64,000 bases of DNA from a virus, in the IMG/VR virus record IMGVR_UViG_3300036770_005214, positions 1-64,000 of that record. One strand, written 5' to 3'. Under the pieces are notes generated by a model. The model did no database searches and was not told where the DNA came from. It saw nothing but the letters and a program-made list of their open reading frames with translations. The position numbers and the translations under genes were made by a program. Of the stretch, positions 2,561 through 54,800 are shown one piece after another (positions within the stretch are counted from its first letter, which is position 1; each line of letters begins with the position of its first letter).

Positions 2561-3556
2561 TCAGTAGATGGGGAGAACGCTGGTGATCCAAGGCATCGCG
2601 AAGCCATTGGTGGCTTGGATGATGACCTTGGGCTCTGCCGTCGCCAGATTGAGCGTGTCGCAGTTGTTCAACGTGACGTTGTAGCAGCAGAGACCCGTCG
2701 TCATGCCCTTGGGGTAGGTGGCGCCGTTGCCGACCATCACCGGGTAGGTCTGCACGCCGACACCGTAGGGGCCGAGGCCGACCGTGGTCCGGGGCGCAAG
2801 AAGCTGCCCGCTCAAACCCGAGAAGTAGATGTAATGGAGCCCGTAGGTCCCGTTGATCAGGTAGGACCGATACGGCGAGACGGGAGCCGTGAAGTCGTAG
2901 GCCTGCCAATACTGGGCGCTGGTCAGCGAGAAGAAGGTCGCGGTTGCACCGGAATAGCGGTAGCTCGGGTCCGCATCCTGGGACGGGTAGGTGTTCGCCT
3001 GCACCGCTTCGGTGTAGGTCAACTCTCCCGGGGTACTGCCGGACGCCCAACGGGTCATCCACCAGCCGTACACGCCATTGACCGCGGTGTCCGAGGCGAC
3101 GCACGAGACGTAGCCGCTGGTAGCTGCATAGGCGGCACCGGAAGCGGGGCCCGTGATGGCGGCCTCGTTGCCGAAGCCAATGCTGGCGCTCGCGACCCAC
3201 ACCACGCCGTCACCGCCAGCGCCCGTGGTCGGGAGCGTGGTCGCGCCGGGCGAGCCACCGATGAAGCCGGTCGCGCGAGAATACTTGATGATGGCCGTCG
3301 TCGCGGCCGAGCCGCGCATGAAGCAGTACTCGCGACCGCCCGCGCCACCCGGCTCGCGCAACCGGCACCACGCGCCGCTGGCGTTCCAGGCGGTCGCGTC
3401 GGGAAGCTGGTCGGGGGTCGAGCCCGCCGTGTAGGTCGTCCCGTTGGACGACGCCATGAGTTCCCAACCGGCTGCGAGCAGCGCGGTCTTGATGGCGTTG
3501 AAGTAGTCCGCCGTGCCGAGGGTCACGACGTTGTTGACGGAGCCGACGTAGGCCAT
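2561..3556 (-). CDS. Putative virion structural protein, paralog of 1472-2551
   Basis: Colinear shared motifs along the whole length indicate a tandem duplication. Confidence 0.7.
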   Translation of the reverse strand: MAYVGSVNNVVTLGTADYFNAIKTALLAAGWELMASSNGTTYTAGSTPDQLPDATAWNASGAWCRLREPGGAGGREYCFMRGSAATTAIIKYSRATGFIGGSPGATTLPTTGAGGDGVVWVASASIGFGNEAAITGPASGAAYAATSGYVSCVASDTAVNGVYGWWMTRWASGSTPGELTYTEAVQANTYPSQDADPSYRYSGATATFFSLTSAQYWQAYDFTAPVSPYRSYLINGTYGLHYIYFSGLSGQLLAPRTTVGLGPYGVGVQTYPVMVGNGATYPKGMTTGLCCYNVTLNNCDTLNLATAEPKVIIQATNGFAMPWITSVLPIY

Positions 3557-14922: not shown

Positions 14923-15321
14923 TCACCGGATCTCGGCGAGGGTCTGGAGCATGGCCTCCGCGTGGGCCTTGCGGGCCTGCACGAGGGCCGTCTTGTGGAT
15001 GGGGCGGACGGGGGGATGGCCGTCCTCGGCAGTCCAGGCGCGAGCGATCATGTCCGCGTCTTGGCGGGTCCAGAGGAGCGTCCCACACACGTCACCGCGG
15101 ACGCCCTTGAGGGCGTAGCCCTTGCGGCCGTCGCGGCCGGCTACGGAGCCGATCGCCAGGGTGCAGTCCTCCAGGGCCACGGCCCACACATGAGCGACCA
15201 GGGCCACATGGCCCAGCCGGGCGGACTCGGCCTCACGAGCGAGGTACTCCTCGGCCTCGGCGATCGTCTGGGTGTAGAGGGCGACGTACTGGTCGCGGAT
15301 AGAGGAGCGGGCGGTCATCAT
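14923..15321 (-). CDS. Hypothetical early protein
   Basis: Preceded by the repeated CTGGAGACACGACC-ATG leader. Confidence 0.65.
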   Translation of the reverse strand: MMTARSSIRDQYVALYTQTIAEAEEYLAREAESARLGHVALVAHVWAVALEDCTLAIGSVAGRDGRKGYALKGVRGDVCGTLLWTRQDADMIARAWTAEDGHPPVRPIHKTALVQARKAHAEAMLQTLAEIR

Positions 15322-15358
15322 GGTCGTGTCTCCAGAGTGAAAGGGAAGGGAAGGGGGA

Positions 15359-15694
15359 TCAGGCTTGGGCGTCGATCAGCGCGTCGACCTGGGCGGGGAA
15401 GCTCGAATCGAAGGCCGCCCCGCTGTTGCGCAGGACTTGGAGCAGCGACCAGTCCGAGTAGGCAAACCCGAAGGGGCCGGCGCTACGGGGGCCCGCCGCC
15501 GCGAAGTCGTTGAAGAGGACCACCGTCCAGTGATCGAGGGCTTCCACCTTCCCGCCCTTGCGGCGGGCTCCGCGGCGGTCAGCGGCAGCGGCGTCGACCA
15601 GATAGGCCTTGGCGGCCGAGCGGTAGGCTCGGAGGACCTTGGAGGCGGCGGGGTGCTGCGCGAAGAACTTGGCAAGGGAGGTCTTGGTGGCCAT
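15359..15694 (-). CDS. Hypothetical early protein
   Basis: AGGAG RBS, ATG 15694, directly after promoter-repeat copy 1. Confidence 0.65.
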   Translation of the reverse strand: MATKTSLAKFFAQHPAASKVLRAYRSAAKAYLVDAAAADRRGARRKGGKVEALDHWTVVLFNDFAAAGPRSAGPFGFAYSDWSLLQVLRNSGAAFDSSFPAQVDALIDAQA

Positions 15695-15718
15695 GGTCGG
15701 GTCTCCTGTTTGCCGGGC

Positions 15719-15774
15719 GGGCACCGTTGCCGCCGGCACTGTCTCTGTATCCAGGGGCGGCCGTACCGTCAACC
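15719..15774 (-). promoter_or_regulatory. Early promoter plus leader hairpin, repeat copy 1
   Basis: Minus strand TTGACG (15772-15767), 17-bp spacer, TACAGA (15749-15744), then a GCCGGCGGCAACGGTGCC hairpin. Near-identical at 17416 and 26363; variant at 19068. Confidence 0.75.
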
Positions 15775-15917
15775 AAGAAGGTGCAGATTGCTAAAAAAGG
15801 GCCTTAGAACCGTCAATCTTTCTGATCGGTGGTTCGGGCGGTTCGCCCGCGGGAGGCCCGGCCAGAGGGCAAGGCCCCCAGAGGGGGAAGGGGCAAAGGG
15901 GGAAGGGGTAAGGGGGG

Positions 15918-16118
15918 TCAGGCCCACAAGCGCAGTAGGCGCTCGTCCTGCGCAGCCCGTACCCTTGCCCTGCGGGCCCGCTCCTCGGGATGCCTCCGCA
16001 TCTCGGCACGCAGCCGGATGATGGCTGCCTCGGCCGTCAGGGCCACGCAGGGGTCGTCCGAGAAGACGTCCCGGCGAGCGGCGTGCAGGTCCCGCTCGAT
16101 CTCCTCCAGGGCCCTCAC
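15918..16118 (-). CDS. Small hypothetical protein
   Basis: GTGA-coupled to the upstream gene. Followed by a C-rich tract in the mRNA. Confidence 0.5.
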   Translation of the reverse strand: MRALEEIERDLHAARRDVFSDDPCVALTAEAAIIRLRAEMRRHPEERARRARVRAAQDERLLRLWA

Positions 16119-16348
16119 GAGGCCACCTCGGCCATGAGGTCCATGGCGGCCCGCTGGCGCAGGTCAACGAGGTCCATCCCGGTCAGCCAGTCCGCACCCA
16201 CGCGGATCGCCTCGGCCTCGGCGTCGGCCAGCCACGCGAGCAAGCCCGGGAGGTCCAGGGTATCGAGGCCATGGGCGGAGACCAGTCCCCGGGGGGTCGA
16301 GGCTTCGCCGAGCACGGTGTTCCAGTAGGTCTCATGGGCGGTCGTCAT
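16115..16348 (-). CDS. Small hypothetical protein
   Basis: Repeated GGAGACACGACC leader before ATG 16348. Confidence 0.6.
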   Translation of the reverse strand: MTTAHETYWNTVLGEASTPRGLVSAHGLDTLDLPGLLAWLADAEAEAIRVGADWLTGMDLVDLRQRAAMDLMAEVAS

Positions 16349-16370
16349 GGTCGTGTCTCCAGGTGAAGGG

Positions 16371-16400
16371 GAAGGGGGGCAAGCCCCCCAGGGAAGGGCG
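16371..16400 (-). repeat. 30-bp intergenic repeat with G6-CUUG-C6 hairpin
   Basis: GAAGGGGGGCAAGCCCCCCAGGGAAGGGCG is identical at 16709-16738. Variants occur near 17386-17410 and 14885-14921 (UUCG loop). Confidence 0.85.
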
Positions 16401-16422
16401 ATTGTCGTTCGGGGCCTCGGGG

Positions 16423-16683
16423 CTACGCCCCCTGGGCGGCCATGGCCCCAGCCCAAGCGGTGAGCGCGTCGGCCGCCCCCGCGTAGTCCCGGGCCTTGAA
16501 CTTCTGGCCGGTGATCTGGGCCGCCGCCTTCATCATCGCGCTCGGGGTGTAGGCGCGGTTCACCTTCATACCGGTCCGGGCGTAGAAGCGCAGGGCCGAT
16601 GCGATGGCGCTGGCGCGGTAGATGCTGACGGCTGCGGGACCGCTGAAGGTGGTGGTCCCGCCCGGGGTGGTTTCGATCGGCAT
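16423..16683 (-). CDS. Small hypothetical protein
   Basis: AAGGAG RBS before ATG 16683 (MPIETTPGG...). Confidence 0.65.
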   Translation of the reverse strand: MPIETTPGGTTTFSGPAAVSIYRASAIASALRFYARTGMKVNRAYTPSAMMKAAAQITGQKFKARDYAGAADALTAWAGAMAAQGA

Positions 16684-16739
16684 GTGAGTCTCCTTGTGTT
16701 GAGTAGGTGAAGGGGGGCAAGCCCCCCAGGGAAGGGCGG

Positions 16740-17363
16740 TCAGGCGATCTCGGCGCCGAAGACCGTACAGGGGGCATGGGCGCCGTTCTGGGAGCGATAC
16801 CAGTCGGGGGGGCTCAGGGGGAGCACGAGCAGCCCGGTGTACCCGTGGACGAGCACCCGGCGGAGCACCAAGGCAGGGCCGATCCGGTTGATCGTCACGG
16901 TGACGTCCTCGCCCGCAGCGGGGATCGCACCGGAGCCCGACCACTGGCCCCCTTGCCAGCCTTCCTGGTCAGGCTGGACGGCTACGCCCAGGTAGGCGTA
17001 GCCGCCGCTCACCCGGGCATGGGCCTGCACGCCCATTCCAGAGAGGGCGAAGTCGCGATCTCCGGTCTTCTCGTGGTGGGCCTCTAGCTGGCTGACGTAG
17101 GCCGCGGTCAGCCCGGAGAGTGCCTCACGAGCAGCGGGGCTCAGGTGCCCGGGGGTGCGGCTACCGCAGCGATCCCCCAGGAGGGCGAAGCGGTAGCCCG
17201 AGATCGTCACGGGGCGGCGGTTGGCCACCTTGGGGCGCCCCGTGGGGGTCAGCACCGGACGGCTGACCGACTCCACGATGGCGCGGGCCCCGAAGGCGAT
17301 GGGGGACTCCGGGATGATATCGAGGCCGAAGGTGAAGGAAGGGGCAGGGGAGAGGGTAGACAT
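16740..17363 (-). CDS. Hypothetical early protein
   Basis: AGGAG RBS. First gene after promoter-repeat copy 2. Confidence 0.65.
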   Translation of the reverse strand: MSTLSPAPSFTFGLDIIPESPIAFGARAIVESVSRPVLTPTGRPKVANRRPVTISGYRFALLGDRCGSRTPGHLSPAAREALSGLTAAYVSQLEAHHEKTGDRDFALSGMGVQAHARVSGGYAYLGVAVQPDQEGWQGGQWSGSGAIPAAGEDVTVTINRIGPALVLRRVLVHGYTGLLVLPLSPPDWYRSQNGAHAPCTVFGAEIA

Positions 17364-17415
17364 TGGGGATCTCCTAGTAGGTGCAGGGGGACAAGCCCCC
17401 CAGGGGAAGGTCGGC

Positions 17416-17495
17416 GGGCACCGTTGCCGCCGGCACTGTCTCTGTATCCAGGGGCGGCCCTACCGTCAACCATAAAGGTGCAGATACCGTGAAAG
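17416..17495 (-). promoter_or_regulatory. Early promoter plus leader hairpin, repeat copy 2
   Basis: TTGACG (17469-17464), 17-bp spacer, TACAGA (17446-17441). Its upstream block of about 30 bp is shared with copy 3. Confidence 0.75.
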
Positions 17496-17633
17496 TGTAG
17501 TTTCTACCGTGATCCGGGGGCAGTCCTCCCGCTGCCTCCTGGGGGCAGTCCTCCCCCGCGGGTCGCGCGCACGAGGGCGGACCCCGAAGGGGTAAGGGGG
17601 AAGGGGGGAAGGGGTAAGGGGGGAAGGGCGGGA

Positions 17634-17684
17634 TCAGGGGTCTGCTGCCGACCCTGCCCGGGGCCCCATGGGGATGGGCGTCAT
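17634..17684 (-). CDS. Micro-ORF 4 (16 aa, MTPIPMGPRAGSAADP)
   Basis: ATGA overlap with micro-ORF 3 and a GAGGGG SD. Its stop lies just before the C-rich tract. Confidence 0.35.
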   Translation of the reverse strand: MTPIPMGPRAGSAADP

Positions 17685-17803
17685 ACGAGTCGTCCCCTCG
17701 CCCGCGAGCGATACCACGGCCAGCGAAGCGACCGCGACCGAGACCACGACAAGGGCCCCGATCGCGACTGCGGACGGACAGCACCGATGGTCAAGGGGGT
17801 CAC
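17681..17803 (-). CDS. Ser/Arg/Trp-repeat micro-ORF 3 (40 aa)
   Basis: GTGA overlap. MTPLTIGAVRPQSRSGPLSWSRSRSLRWPWYRSRARGRLV. Confidence 0.5.
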   Translation of the reverse strand: MTPLTIGAVRPQSRSGPLSWSRSRSLRWPWYRSRARGRLV

Positions 17804-17973
17804 AGCCGCCCCCTCGCCTGCGACCGCGACCGAGACCGCAACAACGATCGAGGGCCGACCCCGGACCGCGACTCGGAAACCGGCCACGGCCCCGACCCGG
17901 ACTCCGACCACGGCCATGGCCCTGACCCGGACTCCGACCCCAAGCTGCTCCGACCCCCGCGCAGCGCGATCAT
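17800..17973 (-). CDS. Ser-X repeat micro-ORF 2 (57 aa)
   Basis: AGGAGG SD and ATGA overlap. MIALRGGRSSLGSESGSGPWPWSESGSG...RSRSRSQARGRL. Confidence 0.55.
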   Translation of the reverse strand: MIALRGGRSSLGSESGSGPWPWSESGSGPWPVSESRSGVGPRSLLRSRSRSQARGRL

Positions 17974-18227
17974 GGCTGACCTCCTACGGGCTGCGACCGC
18001 GACCGCGACCACGACAACGACCACAACCGCGACCCTGGCCCTGACCACGACCCCGACCCCGACCACGACCCCGACCGCGACCGCGACCGCAACCGCAACC
18101 CCAACCACGACCGCGACCCCGACCGCGACCCCGACCACGACCACGACCACGGCCACGACCACGACCATGACCGCGGCCCCGACCACGACCGCGACCGCGG
18201 CGTCGCCCCCGCAAGTAGCGCCACCAC
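17970..18227 (-). CDS. Ser-X (SR/SW/SG) repeat micro-ORF 1 (85 aa)
   Basis: GTG overlaps the upstream TAG. Encoded by degenerate hexamer repeats (NCGACC on the plus strand). Confidence 0.55.
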   Translation of the reverse strand: MVALLAGATPRSRSWSGPRSWSWSWPWSWSWSGSRSGSRSWLGLRLRSRSRSGSWSGSGSWSGPGSRLWSLSWSRSRSQPVGGQP

Positions 18228-18496
18228 TAGCGCACGTCGCGAGGGAGCGGATGGGGCCACGGCGCGACGTCAACGATCGCAGCACGCGAGACGATGCACT
18301 GACCCGGGTAGGGCTCGACCTCGGCGAGACGGCCCGTGGAGAGGGCTTCCGACCAGCGCCCCGTATCCGCGATCCAGGCGGCCTCGGAGAGGACAAGCTC
18401 GCCCGGGAGCACTCGTTCGAGGCGTCCGGTGTAGTACATGGTCACGGTGCGGATTATGTAGGCTTGGCCTACGACGTAGGGATGATCTGCGGACAT
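18227..18496 (-). CDS. Small beta-rich protein, predicted Sm/LSm-like fold
   Basis: AAGGAG RBS. GQAYIIRTVTMYYTGRL...ELVLSEAAWI...GQCIVSRAAIVDV resembles the Sm1 and Sm2 motifs; the fold is an inference. Confidence 0.6.
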   Translation of the reverse strand: MSADHPYVVGQAYIIRTVTMYYTGRLERVLPGELVLSEAAWIADTGRWSEALSTGRLAEVEPYPGQCIVSRAAIVDVAPWPHPLPRDVR

Positions 18497-18538
18497 GGCT
18501 GGCTCCTTGTTGGTGAGAGTGATCATGGGGGTAGGGGG

Positions 18539-18754
18539 TTAGCGCGACAGGCCGTAGACGCGGTGGCCGTCTTGCCAGCGGATCTTGCTGGCCTCACGGT
18601 CCGTCAGCACGCGGACCGGCAGGGATCCGACCGCGGGGTGCTGGTCGCGGATCTCCTGGGATCGGGCGCTGGCCCACTCCTCCCCTTCCGTGCGAGTCTT
18701 GACGCGGCACCAGTCGTGATGGGTGGAGCCGTGGATACCGACGATGGCGAGCAT
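18539..18754 (-). CDS. Small hypothetical protein
   Basis: AGGAG RBS before ATG 18754. Confidence 0.55.
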   Translation of the reverse strand: MLAIVGIHGSTHHDWCRVKTRTEGEEWASARSQEIRDQHPAVGSLPVRVLTDREASKIRWQDGHRVYGLSR

Positions 18755-18789
18755 GAGATCTCCTGCGAGAGGTGTGTTGCGCTGACTGA

Positions 18790-19041
18790 CTAGTACGATT
18801 CGACGATGTTCTGGTGGCAAAGGCCCTTCCCGCCCCGCTGGATATAGGCCGTACCGAGGTTCGAGTATTGGGCGACGTAGATCCGGTGCGTCTTGCTCCC
18901 CACCCGCACCACCCAGGGGGTCGGGATCTTCCCGCCGTAGCCGGACGCGGTGTAGGAGAGGCCTTTTTCGTGCCACCACAAGGGACGGTAGGTGGCGGAG
19001 AGGGACTGCCCCTCGATCTGAACCTGACGGGTGGTGGACAC
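18790..19041 (-). CDS. Small phage protein (TASGYGxKIPT motif)
   Basis: AGGAGG RBS, GTG 19041. First gene after promoter-repeat copy 3. Confidence 0.65.
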   Translation of the reverse strand: MSTTRQVQIEGQSLSATYRPLWWHEKGLSYTASGYGGKIPTPWVVRVGSKTHRIYVAQYSNLGTAYIQRGGKGLCHQNIVESY

Positions 19042-19067
19042 GGGGACCTCCTGGGGGTTGCCGGCTC

Positions 19068-19147
19068 GGCATCTTCGCCGCCGGTGACTCACTGGTATCT
19101 CGGTCTCCCCGCACCGTCAACCATAAAGGGGCAGATACCGTGAAAGG
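19068..19147 (-). promoter_or_regulatory. Early promoter plus leader hairpin, repeat copy 3 (divergent)
   Basis: TTGACG (19120-19115), 17-bp spacer, TACCAG (19097-19092). The hairpin is kept with a different loop. Confidence 0.7.
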
Positions 19148-19513
19148 CTAGGTTTGACCGTCAATCCCCCTGGCCGGCTCGGCGCCTTGGGGGACGCTGG
19201 GCGGGGGTCCTCCAGGGGGCGCCCTCACGGGGGCGGGGCCAGCCTTGAAGGGGGCATGGGGGGTAAGGGTCGCCAGGGCTTCCAGGATGGGAAGGTGGCA
19301 GCGGGTACAAGCCCCGACCCCCTTGGGGGCTCCGACGGCGGAGATCATCCGAATCTCCCCCACCTCGACCCCTTGGGCCTCGCCGCACCGAACACACCGC
19401 GGGGCTCCCAAGCGGGTGCGCCACTGGTGAGGCGTGGTCCCCTGCGCGAGCGCGTAGGCGAGGCGTTGGTCCCACATGGGCAGGGGAGTTCGCCGGACGT
19501 AACGGACGGACAC
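19148..19513 (-). CDS. Hypothetical Zn-finger-like protein
   Basis: CVRC and CTRC pairs, AGGAGG RBS and its own promoter TTGCGC-17-TACCGG. Confidence 0.5.
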   Translation of the reverse strand: MSVRYVRRTPLPMWDQRLAYALAQGTTPHQWRTRLGAPRCVRCGEAQGVEVGEIRMISAVGAPKGVGACTRCHLPILEALATLTPHAPFKAGPAPVRAPPGGPPPSVPQGAEPARGIDGQT

Positions 19514-19573
19514 GGGGGCACCTCCTGCCTACCGGTAGCCCGGTGGGCTCTAGTGCGCAACCCCCTGGCCCCC

Positions 19574-19602
19574 TTGACACGCGAGGGCCGCTCGACTACA
19601 AC
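19574..19602 (+). promoter_or_regulatory. Sigma70-like promoter of the candidate ncRNA
   Basis: TTGACA (19574-79), 17-bp spacer, TACAAC (19597-602). No RBS-led ORF follows. Confidence 0.7.
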
Positions 19603-19608
19603 AGGGAG

Positions 19609-20198
19609 GTCGGAGGGCCCGGAAGGCCCCGAGACGAGACCGGGCTAGGTAGCCGCATCGGGTGAACCCGCTGAAAGGCGCCTAGCAGGCTTTGACATTC
19701 AGGAGCACTTGTCCGCTAGAAGTAAGCCGTCAGTATCTGTTGTCAGACGGATGCCAGTCTGCAATCGGCTCTGGGGCCGTAGGCATCACCAACGAACACG
19801 ACTACGAACACAACTACAAACTAGGTCAGAGAAGGCGGAAGAAACTGGAATCCAAGTGCTCGGGATGAAAGGGGAAGGCTAGAGAGTCAATCTGCAACTC
19901 AACGTGAAAGCAGCGCGCAGAGTCGCCACAAGACCGAGGCCAAGGTCGACCACCAACACACGAACATCACTACACCAAGAACCAGACCGCGGCCGAAAAA
20001 CACGACTACGAACACGACTACGAACACAACCAAGACGAAGCGCAACGTCGACACGAAGCTCCCACGGCAGGGCCGGTGGATGTGAGCAACGAGAAGCAGT
20101 ATCCGAGGATAGTACCCGATTAGTTCCAAACTGAAGGTCAGGGGAGGCGCATACCTAGACGCGGCCCAAACAGGGTCTAGGGGCTCTCACATTTTTTT
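19609..20198 (+). ncRNA. Candidate large structured non-coding RNA (about 590 nt), family unknown
   Basis: Own promoter, pairing between the 5' and 3' ends, nested internal stems, A/C-rich repeat loops and a terminal T7 run. Lower GC than the flanking genes and no credible ORF. Confidence 0.6.
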
Positions 20199-20390
20199 GC
20201 CTCACCGGAAAACCGATGGGGACGCTGCGGCGGCGACGTCGTTAGCGCGGGGAAACTCGCGAGCGTTCTACGGGGGTCCTGGGGCGGATCGAATCGGAAG
20301 CGTTCAGGGGCGTTTCTTGGGGTGTAAAGCTCTGTCTCGAAATGTGCAACTTTCTGCATACTCGACGTGGGGCTCCATAACCCAACGCCA

Positions 20391-20490
20391 ACTAACATAA
20401 AGAGAAGAAATATATGCTTATTCCTTATACTATTACTTGCAGCTTAGAAGTGACCTTAAGAAAGTGACCTACTTGGTTTGCTTCCTAGCG
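20391..20490. other. AT-rich island, putative replication origin
   Basis: Most AT-rich stretch in the window. AAGTGACCT direct repeat at 20448 and 20462. Lies at the strand switch upstream of the replication genes. Confidence 0.45.
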
Positions 20491-20636
20491 CCCGCGCGCG
20501 ACTATTAGGTCGACCTCCGGGGCGCAAGTAAATGTAACAACTTTCCCTAGCTGCGATCGCACGGTCTTTACATCTCCTTGACACTTGGGAACGCGCTTGA
20601 CCCCCAGGGCTACATGCGCTAAATACGCTGCGGAAG

Positions 20637-22829
20637 GTGAACCGGATGCTTCGCGACTTCTCCCGCGACGTCACTACAGGACTGCCGCGTGCAGCGCGTC
20701 AGTTCTACCAAGCGGTGAGTTCCGCCACGCGCGGTTTCGACCTTGAACAACTGCTCGGCGTGCGTTGGTCTGACATTCGGCTCCTGGGGCTGTCTCACTT
20801 TGCGGACGTCAGAGGCATCCGCGGCCCGGTGAAGCTCCTCCCCGAGTGCGCCACGGACCTGGAGCGGTGGTCGCGGGTCGCGTTGGACCCTCTCGGTCGC
20901 CTCGTCCCGGTCGAGCGGCCTCCACGCGCCTACGTCTTCGGGCTCCCGGGCACAGAGGAGCCCATGCCCCGCTGGTTGCTCAACTGGCTGCTCCACGAGG
21001 TCCGGTTCCCAGGCGTCATCGACCACCGGCGCATCCTCAGCGCCCTGTCCTCGACGCTCATGTGGCATCCGACGGTCACCGCCGCGGGGCTCCAGTACGA
21101 GGCCTTCGTGGGCGCCTACGGGGGCACGACGCCCGTGCCTCCCGCCTTCGAGGAGTACCTACGCGAGATGCCCTTCCTGGCGCCGAAGGACCGGATCCGC
21201 GTCTACCGCATCCGCTCGTGGGCCCGGGAGTTCGGCCCGGTCGCGCTGCCGCCCACCGACCCGATTGTCTACTCGTGGTCGTTCGGGCGCAGCCACCAGG
21301 AGTCCCAGGTCATCGCGCTGCGGGAGATCTGGACGGGCTGGCGAGCCTACATGCAGCGCCGGTACAACATCGCCATCCCCGCGCTGCCCGGCTGGCCCTC
21401 CAACGTGATCGAGGCGTACCGGACCCTCGGGCAGCCCGACAAGTGGACCGAGAAGCTGCTATTCGACCCCTCGCCGGCCGCGGAGACGCTGCGGGGCTGG
21501 GCGAGCGCCGACGGGCGGGTGACCCTGCGCATGGGCATGACCACACTCCCCCGCTACGCCGGCTGCGCCAGTCGGGCGGTCAACTTCCGGGAGCGGATGG
21601 TCCTGCTGGAGCACCCCTGGGACTGCCAGGAGCCCTCCCGCCTCTCCGAAGGCCCGAACGGCTGGCTCGCCCTGCGCGAGCTTCCGCACTACCCCCGCGA
21701 GGCCTTGGAGTCGCGCCGCGGCCCCCTGCGCATGAGCGCCGAAGAGCCGCCGCTCCCCGTGATGGAGGACATCGAGACCGAGCCGGCCCTCGCGCCGGAC
21801 GAGTTCGAGGCGCTGCTGGAGAAGCACTGGAACCAGAACCGGCCGCCCACGCCGAAGCACCTGCCCCCGAGCGGCCTCACCGAAGAGCCCGCCGAGACCG
21901 AACACGTCGAGATCCGAGTCCCCCAGGTCATCGGCAAAGAGGTCCTGGCTTACGCCCGCGCCTGCCTCTCCGCCTACGGCACCCGCTACTACCCGCCGCC
22001 CTTCGAGGCTCCGCCCGGAAGCATCCCGGCCAACTCCAAGGCACCCCGCATCCAGCCCGACCCCCCCAAGGTCGACCGCGTGGCCCCCGACCCGTTCCAC
22101 GGGATTCGCGCAAAACAGCCCCAGGAAGACGTCGCGCAGCCCTACCCCTGGTCCGACCAGCCCCCCGCTACTCGGAAGCCTAAGAAAGGCAAACAGGGGC
22201 CTTCCGCGAAGCCTCCGAATAACCAAGCTACAAAGCCTACCGAACCGATCAAGCTCAAGCAGCCCCCCGGAAAACCCTCGATCGAACTCGACACCATCGA
22301 ACCCGACCACACACCCGCACCCGAGCCCGCACCCGAGCCTCCCCCCGAGCCCGAGACCACCCCCGAGACCACCCCCGATCCCGAAGCCAAGTCGGGCGTT
22401 TCCCACCTGCTACCGGAAGTGTTCGACTCCGAGGAACGCGAAGACGTCCGCGGTGTTGCTCTCGATCCGGTCGCGGACCCCGACAGCTACAAGTCGACAG
22501 AATGGCCAGAAGCTCCCAAGGTCAGTGCTCGCGATGCGGTGCGCGATCGCTGGGTTCGGGAGTCCTGGCTGTGGGCGTTCGGTCGGAAGCCCGGCGTCCC
22601 CAACCCCTATGACCTTGAAGCCGAAGAGTGGCCGGAGACCTATCCGCGCTTCCGCAACGGCTTCCGCGTCCCGCCGGACTGGCTGGGGCGGCTCTCCCTT
22701 CGCTGGCGTCAGTTTGGCCTGTTCACGGAGGAGGACGAGGAGATCCCCGGCCTCCGTGAGTACGCCATGCTGATCGATCCATGGCGAAAAGAGGCGGTCG
22801 AGGAGTGGGATCGCGAGTCCGACCGCTGA
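20637..22829 (+). CDS. Large hypothetical protein (730 aa) with Pro/Glu-rich linker
   Basis: Long ORF with promoter TTGACC-17-TAAATA (20597-20625). No recognisable catalytic motif. Confidence 0.7.
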   Translation: MNRMLRDFSRDVTTGLPRAARQFYQAVSSATRGFDLEQLLGVRWSDIRLLGLSHFADVRGIRGPVKLLPECATDLERWSRVALDPLGRLVPVERPPRAYVFGLPGTEEPMPRWLLNWLLHEVRFPGVIDHRRILSALSSTLMWHPTVTAAGLQYEAFVGAYGGTTPVPPAFEEYLREMPFLAPKDRIRVYRIRSWAREFGPVALPPTDPIVYSWSFGRSHQESQVIALREIWTGWRAYMQRRYNIAIPALPGWPSNVIEAYRTLGQPDKWTEKLLFDPSPAAETLRGWASADGRVTLRMGMTTLPRYAGCASRAVNFRERMVLLEHPWDCQEPSRLSEGPNGWLALRELPHYPREALESRRGPLRMSAEEPPLPVMEDIETEPALAPDEFEALLEKHWNQNRPPTPKHLPPSGLTEEPAETEHVEIRVPQVIGKEVLAYARACLSAYGTRYYPPPFEAPPGSIPANSKAPRIQPDPPKVDRVAPDPFHGIRAKQPQEDVAQPYPWSDQPPATRKPKKGKQGPSAKPPNNQATKPTEPIKLKQPPGKPSIELDTIEPDHTPAPEPAPEPPPEPETTPETTPDPEAKSGVSHLLPEVFDSEEREDVRGVALDPVADPDSYKSTEWPEAPKVSARDAVRDRWVRESWLWAFGRKPGVPNPYDLEAEEWPETYPRFRNGFRVPPDWLGRLSLRWRQFGLFTEEDEEIPGLREYAMLIDPWRKEAVEEWDRESDR

Positions 22830-51803: not shown

Positions 51804-54800
51804 ATGAGCTACGCGGACGCACAACGCCGGAAGCACGCCTACCTGTCGTGGATGCTCCGCACAGGTCCCACCCAAGACCCCAAGCGGATGCCGAATCCGA
51901 AGTCCCTCTCTGCACCCTCCAGTCTCATCTGGACTGTCTTGAAGCGGGATGGGAAGTACCTCCCCTATGTGTCCAATGGGCATGTGCTCTTTCCCGGGAT
52001 CTACGACAAGGTGAAGGACGGTGCAAGTAAGCACTTGCACTACCCGAACGAGCAAGACCTCTACCGCCAACTGCACGAGATGGGTGAGGCGCGAAAACTG
52101 CCAGAATGGGCAGGGGAAGACTGGCACTACGTCTCTTCGGGAACAGTGGAGAGCTTGATCCGCGCCGCCGGGGAGGACGCAAACGTCCTTTCCAACCCGA
52201 ACATGGAAGCCCTGTTTCCGGTCCGACTTCGGGACACCGCGAACGGCAAGGAGATGGAGTTCGTTTGGCCGGTCGAGGTCTACGGAAGCCGGCCGGTGTC
52301 TGCTCTTCTGCGCCCCTACGCCGAGATGGTCACCCCCGTTCTGGGGAAGGTCACCAAAGCCTACCTCCCGCGCGGGGGCAGGTCCCCCTTCCGCTTCGAG
52401 AACGATGATGGCGAGGTGTTCCTTGTCATGCCCGCCAACCTTCCCATGACAGAAGAGGAGAGGGAAGCCAAGCGGCAAGTAGAGGAAGAAGAGAACCGCA
52501 AGCGCATGGAGCGTGCTGCCGAGGAGAAGCGGCAAGAAAAGGAGAGGAAGCGGCAGGAAGAGGAGAAGAAGGCCAAGCTCGAAGACACGGACGGCTACGC
52601 GGACCAGTTCGGCAAGCTACGCCGTGGGACCATCGTGAAGTCCCTGCTGGGAAAGATCCGAACCAACACCTTCGGGATCCTCTCTCTCCGAGATCTCATC
52701 CGCAAGCTGGTCAAGGAAGGCTACAGGGTCAAGGTCATCTCGGGAGATCGGGTCATCTCCAACGGTGAGGGTTTCTGGTGGGAGAAGGACCTGGGCAAGA
52801 TTTCCCTCGACTACGCCGAATGGTTGATCGAGAAAGGATACGGTCCTGCGCAGTCCGAACCCGAGCCCACCCCGAGCGACCTCCCTTCGCTGTCTCCCGA
52901 AGAAGAGGCACACTTGTTTGGCGAGGCCCCTGTTGAACCCGCACCAGCGGTCCCGCTCCCGGTGCAGTCGATCTCCCCGGTGACAAAGCACGTCAACGGC
53001 TTTCTCGCCTTCCTGGCGGCGCAGGGCATCTCCTACCCCTATGCGGCGTCCCTGTTGGCGGCGTCCAGTTGGTACAGCACGCACCGCGACCATCACCACC
53101 TTCCGATCGGCCCTTTCGATCCGCTCCCGCCCTTCAACCCCGAGATTGCCGAGCACCGCAAGCTGTCCCAGAAAGGGGTGGAGTATCAGATCGGGAAGTC
53201 CCCGATGTTGTTCCAGGGCTTCGACGGTCAACGCAAGGTCGCGCTCCTCCGAGAGCTAGGCGACCTCGCGCAAGTGGTCGCCTACGGAATCAACCTAAAG
53301 GTCCCTCTGACCGGCGCCTGCCTCGTCGTGGGGCTTGTGCCTCTCCTAGAGGACCGTTGGGCTGCGGCCGGCTATTCGGAGGGCGACGTCGAGTTGTCCG
53401 AGGCCGCCGTCCGCGAGTACCCCTGGCTCTGGAAGCACCTCAAGAAGCGCCTCACCACAGCACCCGTCACCGAGCCCAGCGTGGGCCCGATCGATATGCC
53501 CGATATGCCGGCGGGCACCACGGCCCCCGAAGAGCCCATGGGGCAACTCTACGAACCCGAGCCCTACTACACGGACACGCCCGAGCCCGAACCGGAGCCC
53601 GAACCGGAGCCCGAGCCGGAACCGGAGCCCGAGCCGGAGCCCGGGCCTCCCCGCATCTCCAATGAAGCAGTGTACCACGCCGGAGTTAAGCCGCTGACTC
53701 CGACCCAGCAGCCGGGTGTAGCACTTGCGTCGGACGGAAGCGTCGTCACGCTCACAAACGAGTACGTCAGGCAGCAGCGGGCGACCATGCAGCCGCCTCC
53801 TGGGGAAGCGAACGTACTGAAGCAGCACATCCGCTACAATCCTCCTTACGATGACCCGCAGGTCATCGACAACGCCAGGGTGACGGGCAAAGCCCAGGTC
53901 TCTGACCACGCCACGATCTCCGGGAACGCCCAAGTGTGGGACATCGCGAGCGTGCGAGGTCGGGCGACGGTGACCGACAACGCCAAGGTCTTTGGGGGCG
54001 CCAAGGTGTTCGGCAAAGCCACCATCTCTGGCAACGCTGTCGTCACCGACAGCGCCGAGGTCTGGGACAACGCCGTCGTGACCGAGGATGCCCACATCAT
54101 CGGCAACGCCAAGGTGTTCGGGGACGCGCATATCAGTGGAAAGGCCACGCTGGTCGGCGGTCGGGTGACCGGTAACGCTCGGATCGGCGGGGATGCGCAA
54201 ATCCTCGGGGGCCTTTGGGATGGCTCGGAAGGGGAGATCACCACGGGGATGTGGCACTCGCCGCCCAAGCCCGCCTCTGATGCGCCTCGCAGCGTCGCCC
54301 AACAAGCGGTGGAAGACCTGATCGAAGGCGTCCGCCGAATCGTCGGCGACTACCAGACGACCGGTAAAAGGGAGATTGGGCGGTTCAACAATGAGCTAGT
54401 CCGCCTCGAATGGCGGCGTCTCCGCCCGGGGCAGAAGGCGCGTAGCTACGATCCGCCTGTACCCTATGTCACCTTTGTTATCGGCTGTGACTCCAAGCCG
54501 ATGACGCGGAATGGGGCGTTTCCGAGTTGGAAGCAAGGGGAGGAGCCGGTTGGCAAGCTCTCGGTCGGCGCCAGTGCTCCTTCCGGCTCGTGGGGTCTTC
54601 TGGGGCCGCCCTCACAGATGTCGCCTTACGTCACCCCGGACGGCGGGATGGCGGGACTAAAGCAAGCGATCGACCACATCTTCAAGTGGTTTGAGAGGAA
54701 CAAGAAGGCACTCATCGGTGACTCGCCTCTGCCTGCCCCTTCGGCCCCCGCCGACCCCAACCGCAGCGTTGCTCGGCAGGCGGCTGACGACCTGATCGAA

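Follow-up and report, generated by a model that had tools for sequence, protein, structure and literature searches.

A widespread phage gene pair: a predicted Sm-fold protein and translationally coupled, basic Ser-[R/W/G] peptides

We have analysed a window of 64,000 nucleotides, the first 64 kb of the 108,122-bp IMG/VR virus record IMGVR_UViG_3300036770_005214, and show that it carries on its minus strand, at positions 17,634 to 18,496, a copy of a gene pair that is widespread among phages. The first partner is a gene for a small protein with a predicted Sm fold (hereafter the Sm-like protein), the second consists of one or several translationally coupled genes for basic peptides in which serine alternates with arginine, tryptophan or glycine (Ser-[R/W/G] or, in general, Ser-X). 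Many hundreds of contigs from uncultured phages carry the pair. It has no name and no Pfam or PHROG family, our literature search found no paper that describes it, and its peptide half is often missed or given a wrong start by gene callers.

Organisation of the module

The gene of the Sm-like protein and the open reading frames (ORFs) that follow it are arranged as listed here, with lengths in amino acids (aa) and with isoelectric points (pI) and net charges of the encoded products.

18227..18496, minus strand: gene of the predicted Sm-fold protein, family A, 89 aa, pI 5.5; stop codon TAG at 18229-18227, AAGGAG located 6 nucleotides (nt) 5' of the ATG
17970..18227, minus strand: Ser-X microprotein gene 1 (ORF1), 85 aa, S27 R12 W12 G12, net charge +12; GTG start at 18227, TGA ending at 17970
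17994..18196, no strand assigned: (GGTCGN) hexamer array that forms the coding body of ORF1; period 6, 33.8 copies by Tandem Repeats Finder
17800..17973, minus strand: Ser-X microprotein gene 2 (ORF2), 57 aa, net charge +6, leader MIALRGG; ATG start at 17973, AGGAGG as Shine-Dalgarno (SD) motif, ATGA overlap
17681..17803, minus strand: Ser-X microprotein gene 3 (ORF3), 40 aa, net charge +9, a degenerate unit; GTG start at 17803, GTGA overlap
17634..17684, minus strand: ORF4, 16 aa, a leader-only remnant without repeat body; ATG start at 17684, its MTPIPMG resembling the ORF3 leader VTPLTIG

A preliminary description of this stretch had placed four ORFs of 85, 57, 40 and 16 aa behind the 89-aa gene, each with a start codon overlapping the preceding stop, and all coordinates check out: in the order from the Sm-like gene to ORF4 the junctions read TAGTG, ATGA, GTGA and ATGA. 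It had also seen SD-like sequences within each preceding ORF. Such motifs are indeed present for ORF2 (AGGAGG, with a 6-nt spacer), ORF3 (GAGGGGG) and ORF4 (GAGGGGA), but none was seen upstream of ORF1, which overlaps the Sm-like gene by 1 nt only. The suspected duplication of units, in turn, is borne out. ORF2 and ORF3 share their tails (...SQARGRL and ...SRARGRLV, respectively) and are duplicated units, and ORF4 adds the leader remnant of a further one. The serines of ORF2 are encoded by a mixture of TCG, TCC, TCA, TCT and AGC codons. The array and module locus is a single copy in the genome, and a change in array length by whole hexamers would keep the frame; the copy number of about 34 has to be read together with the finding that Logan contigs of the likely source run end at both array edges (17984 and 18213).

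All three repeat peptides have a pI of 12 (ORF1 to ORF3), as opposed to the acidic Sm-like protein. An AlphaFold2 (AF2) model of the ORF1 product shows no secondary structure and has a pLDDT of 52, a low-confidence result that fits with disorder of the chain but is no proof of it.

The Sm-like protein

The 89-aa protein belongs to a large family, here termed family A. A search among proteins of near its own length returned 280 homologs with E values down to 5e-45, and at least 559 relatives were found on JGI metagenome contigs. The protein is also carried by 26 contigs of metagenome-assembled genomes (MAGs), which were binned to many phyla; a cultured isolate was the source of none of the Sm-like loci that we fetched. 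Since all homologs end in the common C-terminus ...PLPRxx[RK], the TAG of the window gene is a true stop and the length differences between family members are N-terminal. Invariant in family A are residues R16, V18, T23, G24, W41, G46, R47, G55, E59, E61, P62, L84 and P85.

The AF2 model of the protein, which was generated from an alignment of 51 sequences, has a pLDDT of 93.4 and a pTM of 0.84. Its top matches in Foldseek are all Sm or LSm proteins, namely the LSm domain of LSM14, archaeal Sm proteins and Lsm1-7. Likewise, all 50 of the 50 entries listed by VIA-align are Sm or LSm proteins (Z 9.8-8.7), the top one with Z 9.8 and a root-mean-square deviation of 2.1 over 68 residues. The predicted structure thus supports an Sm/LSm fold, that is a small, strongly bent barrel made of five antiparallel beta strands and about 70 residues, and agrees with the preliminary description, which had called the protein Sm-like from its sequence.

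Neither the Sm-like protein nor the peptides have a family match in Pfam, PHROGs, NCBIfam or PADLOC, and the Sm-like protein finds no match in Pfam at E up to 1. A lead from the ESM Atlas to DUF6948 (PF22253, a model with a threshold of 27 bits) is weak (rank 26, score 0.86, DUF6948 on 14% of the cluster): none of the 51 family-A members matches this family at E up to 1, and a search of the whole 108-kb genome with PF22253 gave nothing at E up to 10. A paper naming DUF6948 was not found in the searched literature either. Finally, a search of longer proteins revealed no fusion of the Sm-like protein with a Ser-X chain; it gave only one N-terminally extended form and the product of a deletion in the metagenome contig L016, which is described below.

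Reading frame of the hexamer array

In the array of the window all three sense frames are open (Ser-X, Gly-Arg and Val-Ala), and openness within the window therefore proves nothing about the frame that is read. We compared the loci that had been fetched via the Sm-like gene alone, which come from 12 viral contigs, 80 metagenome contigs and 26 MAG contigs, the G+C content (GC) of the locus ranging from 33 to 73%. In nearly all of them a hexamer array lies immediately 3' of the Sm-like gene. The unit of the array varies by phage and reads GGTCGN, GGTCTN, GGTCAN or GGAGCN, and the frame that consists of a serine codon followed by NGG is the only one to keep its meaning across all four unit types. 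Serine is encoded in the repeat cores by TCG (819 codons), TCT (505), TCA (167), AGC (159), TCC (14) and AGT (6), the dominant serine codon being TCG in 38 loci, TCT in 8, AGC in 6 and TCA in 6, while residue X is Arg in 622, Trp in 508 and Gly in 392 cases. A switch between the serine codon families, TCN on the one hand and AGC/AGT on the other, is hard to explain except via selection on the protein, and this switch makes the array a clear example from nature of a microsatellite on which selection acts as a protein-coding body.

Moreover, it is the Ser-X frame that carries a start codon, mostly in the form of an ATGA over the stop of the Sm-like gene, and in low-GC phages such as L010 and L011 each of the many tandem units is equipped with its own stop, AGGAG and ATG. 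The Ser-X frame also contains a conserved leader of the approximate form MNxAxLRxGx[DE][RW]. In 31 aligned leaders the entropy amounts to 1.05, 0.90 and 1.69 bits at codon positions 1, 2 and 3, and for the leader codon of Gly9 the corresponding values are 0.21, 0.35 and 1.80 bits. Judged by sequence comparison, such third-position variation is the signature of a coding sequence. Taken together, these features lead us to regard it as highly probable that the Ser-X micro-ORFs are real and translated. The preliminary description had argued that so many exact overlaps are unlikely for a mere microsatellite, and the maintenance of the Ser-X frame across phages of widely different GC, with an array in about 85% of loci (see below), confirms that the array is more than that.

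The other frames were considered and rejected. If the TAG were read through, translation would go on in the in-phase Gly-Arg frame and provide the Sm-like protein with an SmD-like tail, but the homologs share one C-terminus. The meaning of the Gly-X frame, besides, shifts with the serine codon between Gly-Arg, Gly-Leu, Gly-His/Gln and Gly-Ala, and the frame is closed in L002 by a TGA two codons past the Sm-like stop and in low-GC loci by several stops. The Val-Ala frame runs into TAG stops in GGTCTA arrays (GTC TAG), and the Arg-Pro frame of the antisense strand is interrupted by TGA in arrays of the TCA type (TGA CCN) and becomes Ala-Pro in those of the AGC type. In the window the Gly-Arg frame, which is in phase with the Sm-like gene, stays open for about 80 codons past the TAG (17984-18226, minus strand), a length that is due to the hexamer geometry.

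Linkage of the two genes and a second Sm-like subfamily

The association of the two genes was assessed in both directions. Of the unique loci, 81 extend for 300 bp or more past the 3' end of the Sm-like gene; 53 of these pass a strict automatic Ser-X test and at least 16 further loci have interrupted or short Ser-X ORFs on inspection, which brings the total to about 85%. For the reverse direction IMG/VR was scanned with the bare DNA pattern (TCNNGG)x7. An Sm-like gene adjoins 41 of the 45 mixed R/W/G arrays that have enough upstream DNA, and it belongs to family A in 24 of these cases and to a second subfamily, family B, in 17. None of the 16 pure SR, SG or SW arrays from the same scan adjoins an Sm-like gene. 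Pure (Ser-Trp)n arrays are different in kind from the mixed ones; they occur without any Sm-like neighbour in L133, L145, L158, L178 and L200, two of which are giant-virus bins. Hence, the operon that the preliminary description had seen in a single genome is, according to the loci of relatives, a conserved and translationally coupled unit, in which the downstream repeat ORFs recur with their frame preserved.

Other neighbour genes are not conserved across about 100 loci, and in these loci the module is not accompanied by any kinase, phosphatase or peptide-modifying enzyme. From reading its sequence, we take the gene that follows the module to be like that of a single-stranded DNA-binding protein (SSB) in L002 and L003 and like a RecA/Sak4-type ATPase gene in L009. 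The lack of a constant enzyme bears on two ideas of the preliminary description, neither of which finds support in the gene context. According to the first, the peptides are phospho-acceptor decoys or, more broadly, the Ser-rich chains serve as decoy or sponge for an enzyme of the host's defence, which could be a Ser/Thr kinase but also a protease or a transferase. As serine occupies every other position, it accounts for about half of the repeat body, and the arrays turn over fast; both would suit such a function. However, no kinase, phosphatase or other enzyme travels along with the module, PADLOC gave no match, and the Sm-like partner as well as the strict choice of R, W and G would be left unexplained, so that we consider a decoy improbable. 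According to the second idea the ORFs encode ribosomally made precursors, each composed of a leader and of a core that is modified after translation. Although a leader with a repetitive core and the tandem paralogs would fit this class, no modifying enzyme is linked in any locus set or lies near the module in the window, the cores range from about 12 to >100 residues, and the constant partner is a small barrel and not an enzyme. To modified precursors we thus give hardly any weight.

The members of family B, the second Sm-like subfamily, are about 85-90 aa long and likewise precede Ser-[R/W/G] peptide genes (L122, L125, L146, L151, L154, L161, L162, L163, L169, L187, L195 and L201). Family B has the consensus ...GEGLEALLG..V.LFC..YIYTGKL.GVN...VKLEDAAIVYETG...IESFG and is homologous to family A (hhalign probability 95.9%, E 5e-9). 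It has no match in Pfam, and none of 10 family-B proteins matches PF22253 at E up to 0.01. The leader of the family-B peptides is a different, basic one (M..RK..YRS...), and the leader type thus tracks the partner Sm-like subfamily. As far as the sequences tell, shared descent could explain this match as well as docking of the leader on its partner.

The peptides themselves are sparsely represented in protein collections. A profile search of 1.84 billion proteins recovered only about 60 small peptide members; the profile also matches long proteins, over the repeat part only, and two of these that were inspected carry SR/KS-type runs. Additional C-terminal parts beyond the Ser-X body are found in P0126, P0137, P0157 and P0165, with a Cys4 zinc-ribbon-like end in P0126 and an acidic tail in P0137. 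Searches of a phage collection gave no match on the DNA level and a single record, MW202573, on the protein level, which lists the Ser-X ORF under the name hypothetical protein.

Variation among close relatives of the window

The window forms a clade with L002 and L003. The leader of this clade is a shortened one ([VM][VI][AT]LRxG), and its members share TAGTG at the end of the Sm-like gene and CCATGATCGCNCTNCGCG at the junction of units; ORF2 has both its MIALR leader and its CCATGATCGCNCTNCGCG junction in common with L002. While the leader of ORF2 (MIALRGG) keeps the form of the clade, those of ORF1 (VVALLAG) and ORF3 (VTPLTIG) do so in part only. Relatives in two freshwater runs show 4 differences over the covered parts of ORF2 and ORF3, of which 3 are synonymous and 1 exchanges Leu for Arg; in ORF3 there are 3 variant sites, 2 of them synonymous in frame and 1 the L to R exchange. 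Between related phages the arrays change length and unit number rapidly, as illustrated by 5 units in L010 versus 9 in L011 and by 1-3 units within the clade of the window.

The contig L016 shares 96-98% DNA identity with the window and lacks window positions 18231..17032 (1.2 kb). The junction of this deletion (L016 positions 3261-3265) lies in a 5-bp microhomology. Across it the Sm-like gene continues in frame into the C-terminal half of a 207-aa protein, which gives a fusion product of 183 aa (P0212). A second gap in L016, of about 280 bp, corresponds to window positions 19044..18766. As a short contig, L016 may represent a variant that is rare or a chimera that arose in assembly.

A possible mechanism and its alternatives

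What, then, might the two products do? We propose that coupled translation makes both of them together and that they would work together. The peptide leader would dock on an oligomer of the Sm-like protein, and the Ser-[R/W/G] chain would thereby act as a flexible multivalent tail in trans, in which Arg charge and Trp stacking would hold RNA or single-stranded DNA (ssDNA). The whole assembly might act as an RNA/ssDNA chaperone or condensing scaffold of the phage. That the Sm-like protein and the peptide physically act together appears probable to us. Docked peptides as basic nucleic-acid-binding tails supplied in trans are the best explanation overall, albeit a tentative one, and that the tail binds nucleic acid in trans seems to us somewhat less likely than not. 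In a more far-reaching version of this split Sm core plus tail, a ring with six or seven docking sites would form a multivalent hub, around which RNA or ssDNA would condense to a compartment that is made by the phage and has no membrane, slippage of the hexamer arrays would quickly tune its valency and stickiness, and the principle would be common to at least two, perhaps three, related Sm-like families. Taken as a whole, this picture is unlikely.

Several observations weigh against docked tails. On the side of the protein, there is no significant match to Pfam LSM (PF01423) or Hfq, a single one of the 51 family-A members matching LSM with E 0.07, and the sequences lend no support to counting the protein among the LSM or Hfq families. 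On the side of the peptides, the leaders of the window are degenerate, ORF1 being devoid of the conserved Arg and of the acidic residue, and the loss of the whole array region from L016 means that the peptides appear dispensable, at least there. Furthermore, residue X is written almost only as NGG, with GGG accounting for 377 of the approximately 392 Gly codons and CGG together with AGG for 572 of the 622 Arg codons. This near-exclusive use of NGG is not required by protein selection alone. It may result from fast slippage turnover together with one-step interconversion of R, W and G, since only among NGG codons can Arg, Trp and Gly be exchanged for one another by a single base change, or it may reflect a constraint on DNA or RNA.

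Could the repeat then act as nucleic acid, with translation being incidental? The TRAP protein wraps triplet repeats, and in a similar manner an oligomeric Sm-like protein might wrap an array that offers GG every six bases. The bias towards NGG, the uniformity of the array, which exceeds what protein selection demands, and the predicted RNA-binding fold of the partner are all in line with this. However, the nucleotides common to the different array types shrink to GG, and serine stays constant through the switch from TCN to AGC/AGT. In addition, the leader is in frame with Ser-X and displays protein-type codon variation, and starts, SD motifs and stop overlaps recur before each unit. A purely nucleic-acid role of the repeat hence seems quite improbable.

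The degenerate leaders, together with the short ORF3, the stump that is ORF4 and the deletion of all peptide genes in the near-identical L016, would also fit with the peptide genes of the window phage being decaying leftovers which are no longer important. Then again, ORF1 and ORF2 are intact and have clean overlaps, the SD motif of ORF2 is strong, and the differences seen in relatives across ORF2 and ORF3 are synonymous in three cases out of four. The deletion, moreover, is known from a short contig with a microhomology junction, which may be a rare variant or a chimera. We therefore regard decay in the window phage as decidedly unlikely.

A further alternative starts from the composition of the peptides, which might be effectors, that is Arg/Trp-rich, antimicrobial-like agents that condense nucleic acid or ribosomes or disturb membranes in the course of host takeover or phage exclusion, with the acidic Sm-like protein as their chaperone or neutraliser. 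The opposite charges of the two products (pI 12 and 5.5) agree with this, coupled translation would match their amounts, and the rapid change in length and copy number fits an arms race. Peptides rich in R and W form an established class of antimicrobials, and condensation of nucleic acids or ribosomes is within the reach of disordered cationic peptides (PMC6017362, PMC10630377, PMC13720017). On the other hand, neither a signal peptide nor a membrane segment is evident on reading the peptide sequences, half of each peptide is serine, unlike in typical R/W antimicrobial peptides, and the constant partner with its Sm fold would be left unexplained. An effector function is thus unlikely in our view, and docking of the peptides as tails on the Sm-like protein is the explanation that we prefer.

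Setting of the locus

The 108-kb record is 92% complete according to CheckV and has a GC of 66.7%. The sequencing runs that match the window point to a subsurface metagenome as the likely source, parts of the window recur in freshwater runs, and no RNA datasets are listed among these runs. Around the module the genes all read on the minus strand. An Rfam scan of 15000-22000 gave 0 matches and a tRNA scan of the window found none. The following features surround the module.

18790..19092, minus strand: 100-aa gene, the first in the operon; matches phrog_3436 (unknown function) with E 2.6e-20; GC at third codon positions (GC3) 0.86
18539..18754, minus strand: 71-aa ORF without match in Pfam, PHROGs, PADLOC or NCBIfam
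19113..19146, minus strand: 34-bp element, copy 1, upstream of the operon; contains TTGACG, 33/34 identical to copy 2
17462..17495, minus strand: 34-bp element, copy 2, located past the 3' end of the operon and 5' of the gene of the 207-aa protein; 33/34 identical to copy 1

The 34-bp element is a direct repeat, CTTTCACGGTATCTGCNCCTTTATGGTTGACGGT, of which there are 2 copies only in the 108-kb genome and whose single mismatch is the free base of the pattern. The two copies flank the operon, which extends from the 100-aa gene through the 71-aa ORF and the Sm-like gene to the peptide genes. A scan of copy 1 (19113..19146) for the sigma-70 consensus gave no match; the repeat may be a promoter, an operator or a cassette boundary. 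Downstream of ORF4 lies a C/T-rich tract (17586-17633; GAAGGGG-type, period 7-15), beyond which GGGAGGACTGCCCCC occurs twice (17541-17555 and 17516-17530), and no intrinsic terminator was detected in 17516-17633. A region of low GC between divergent gene blocks (19650-20640), in which no gene was called, contains hexamer runs of the type GTTCGT AGTCGT at about 20001-20030 and at 19789-19821 (minus strand) that resemble the peptide array. Elsewhere in the genome there are a poly-serine run (101609-101740, plus strand) and a (Ser-Gly)10 run (window positions 53579-53638, minus strand), both unrelated to the module.

Comparison with known systems

The eukaryotic proteins SmD1, SmD3, SmB and LSm4 consist of an Sm core fused to a basic low-complexity tail. 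The phage pair is akin to them in that it combines an Sm-fold core, as predicted here, with a presumably disordered, Arg-rich dipeptide-repeat chain, a combination that recurs in RNA-binding particles. It differs in that the chain is separate and encoded by one or more coupled genes, that it is built of Ser-[R/W/G] instead of Arg-Gly, and that the core shows no LSM sequence membership. A resemblance of the peptides to the RS domains of eukaryotic SR proteins, as put forward in the preliminary description, stands as far as composition is concerned; the peptides, however, have no RNA-recognition motif (RRM), Trp and Gly share position X with Arg, and no linked kinase was found.

Precedent for the proposed docking of the leader comes from LSM14 in complex with a 4E-T peptide (6f9w) and from Edc3 in the decapping complex (6am0), both of which are among the best fold matches of the Sm-like protein. 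In these an LSm barrel grips a short linear motif in trans, but they are a precedent only, being eukaryotic proteins without sequence relation to the phage family. In bacteria Hfq likewise joins a small Sm-type barrel to a disordered low-complexity chain, which tunes the action of Hfq; yet the Hfq tails described in two reports (PMC5606850, PMC6561178) are acidic or variable and fused to the core, whereas the phage chain is basic and a polypeptide of its own.

Among published phage proteins, GoF, MotB.1 and Frd.2 of T4 come closest; they are small, belong to the early proteins, are predicted to fold like LSm proteins and are suspected of a role on RNA (PMC12152347). They resemble the Sm-like protein in being small, phage-encoded and LSm-like in predicted fold but belong to different families, and the abstract of that report describes no repeat-peptide partner for them. 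If our proposal is true, the gene pair would be the bacterial-virus counterpart of the eukaryotic design of RNA particles from an Sm core plus basic tail, and its two proteins would make up a simple system in which to study the cooperation of disordered chains with a folded ring.

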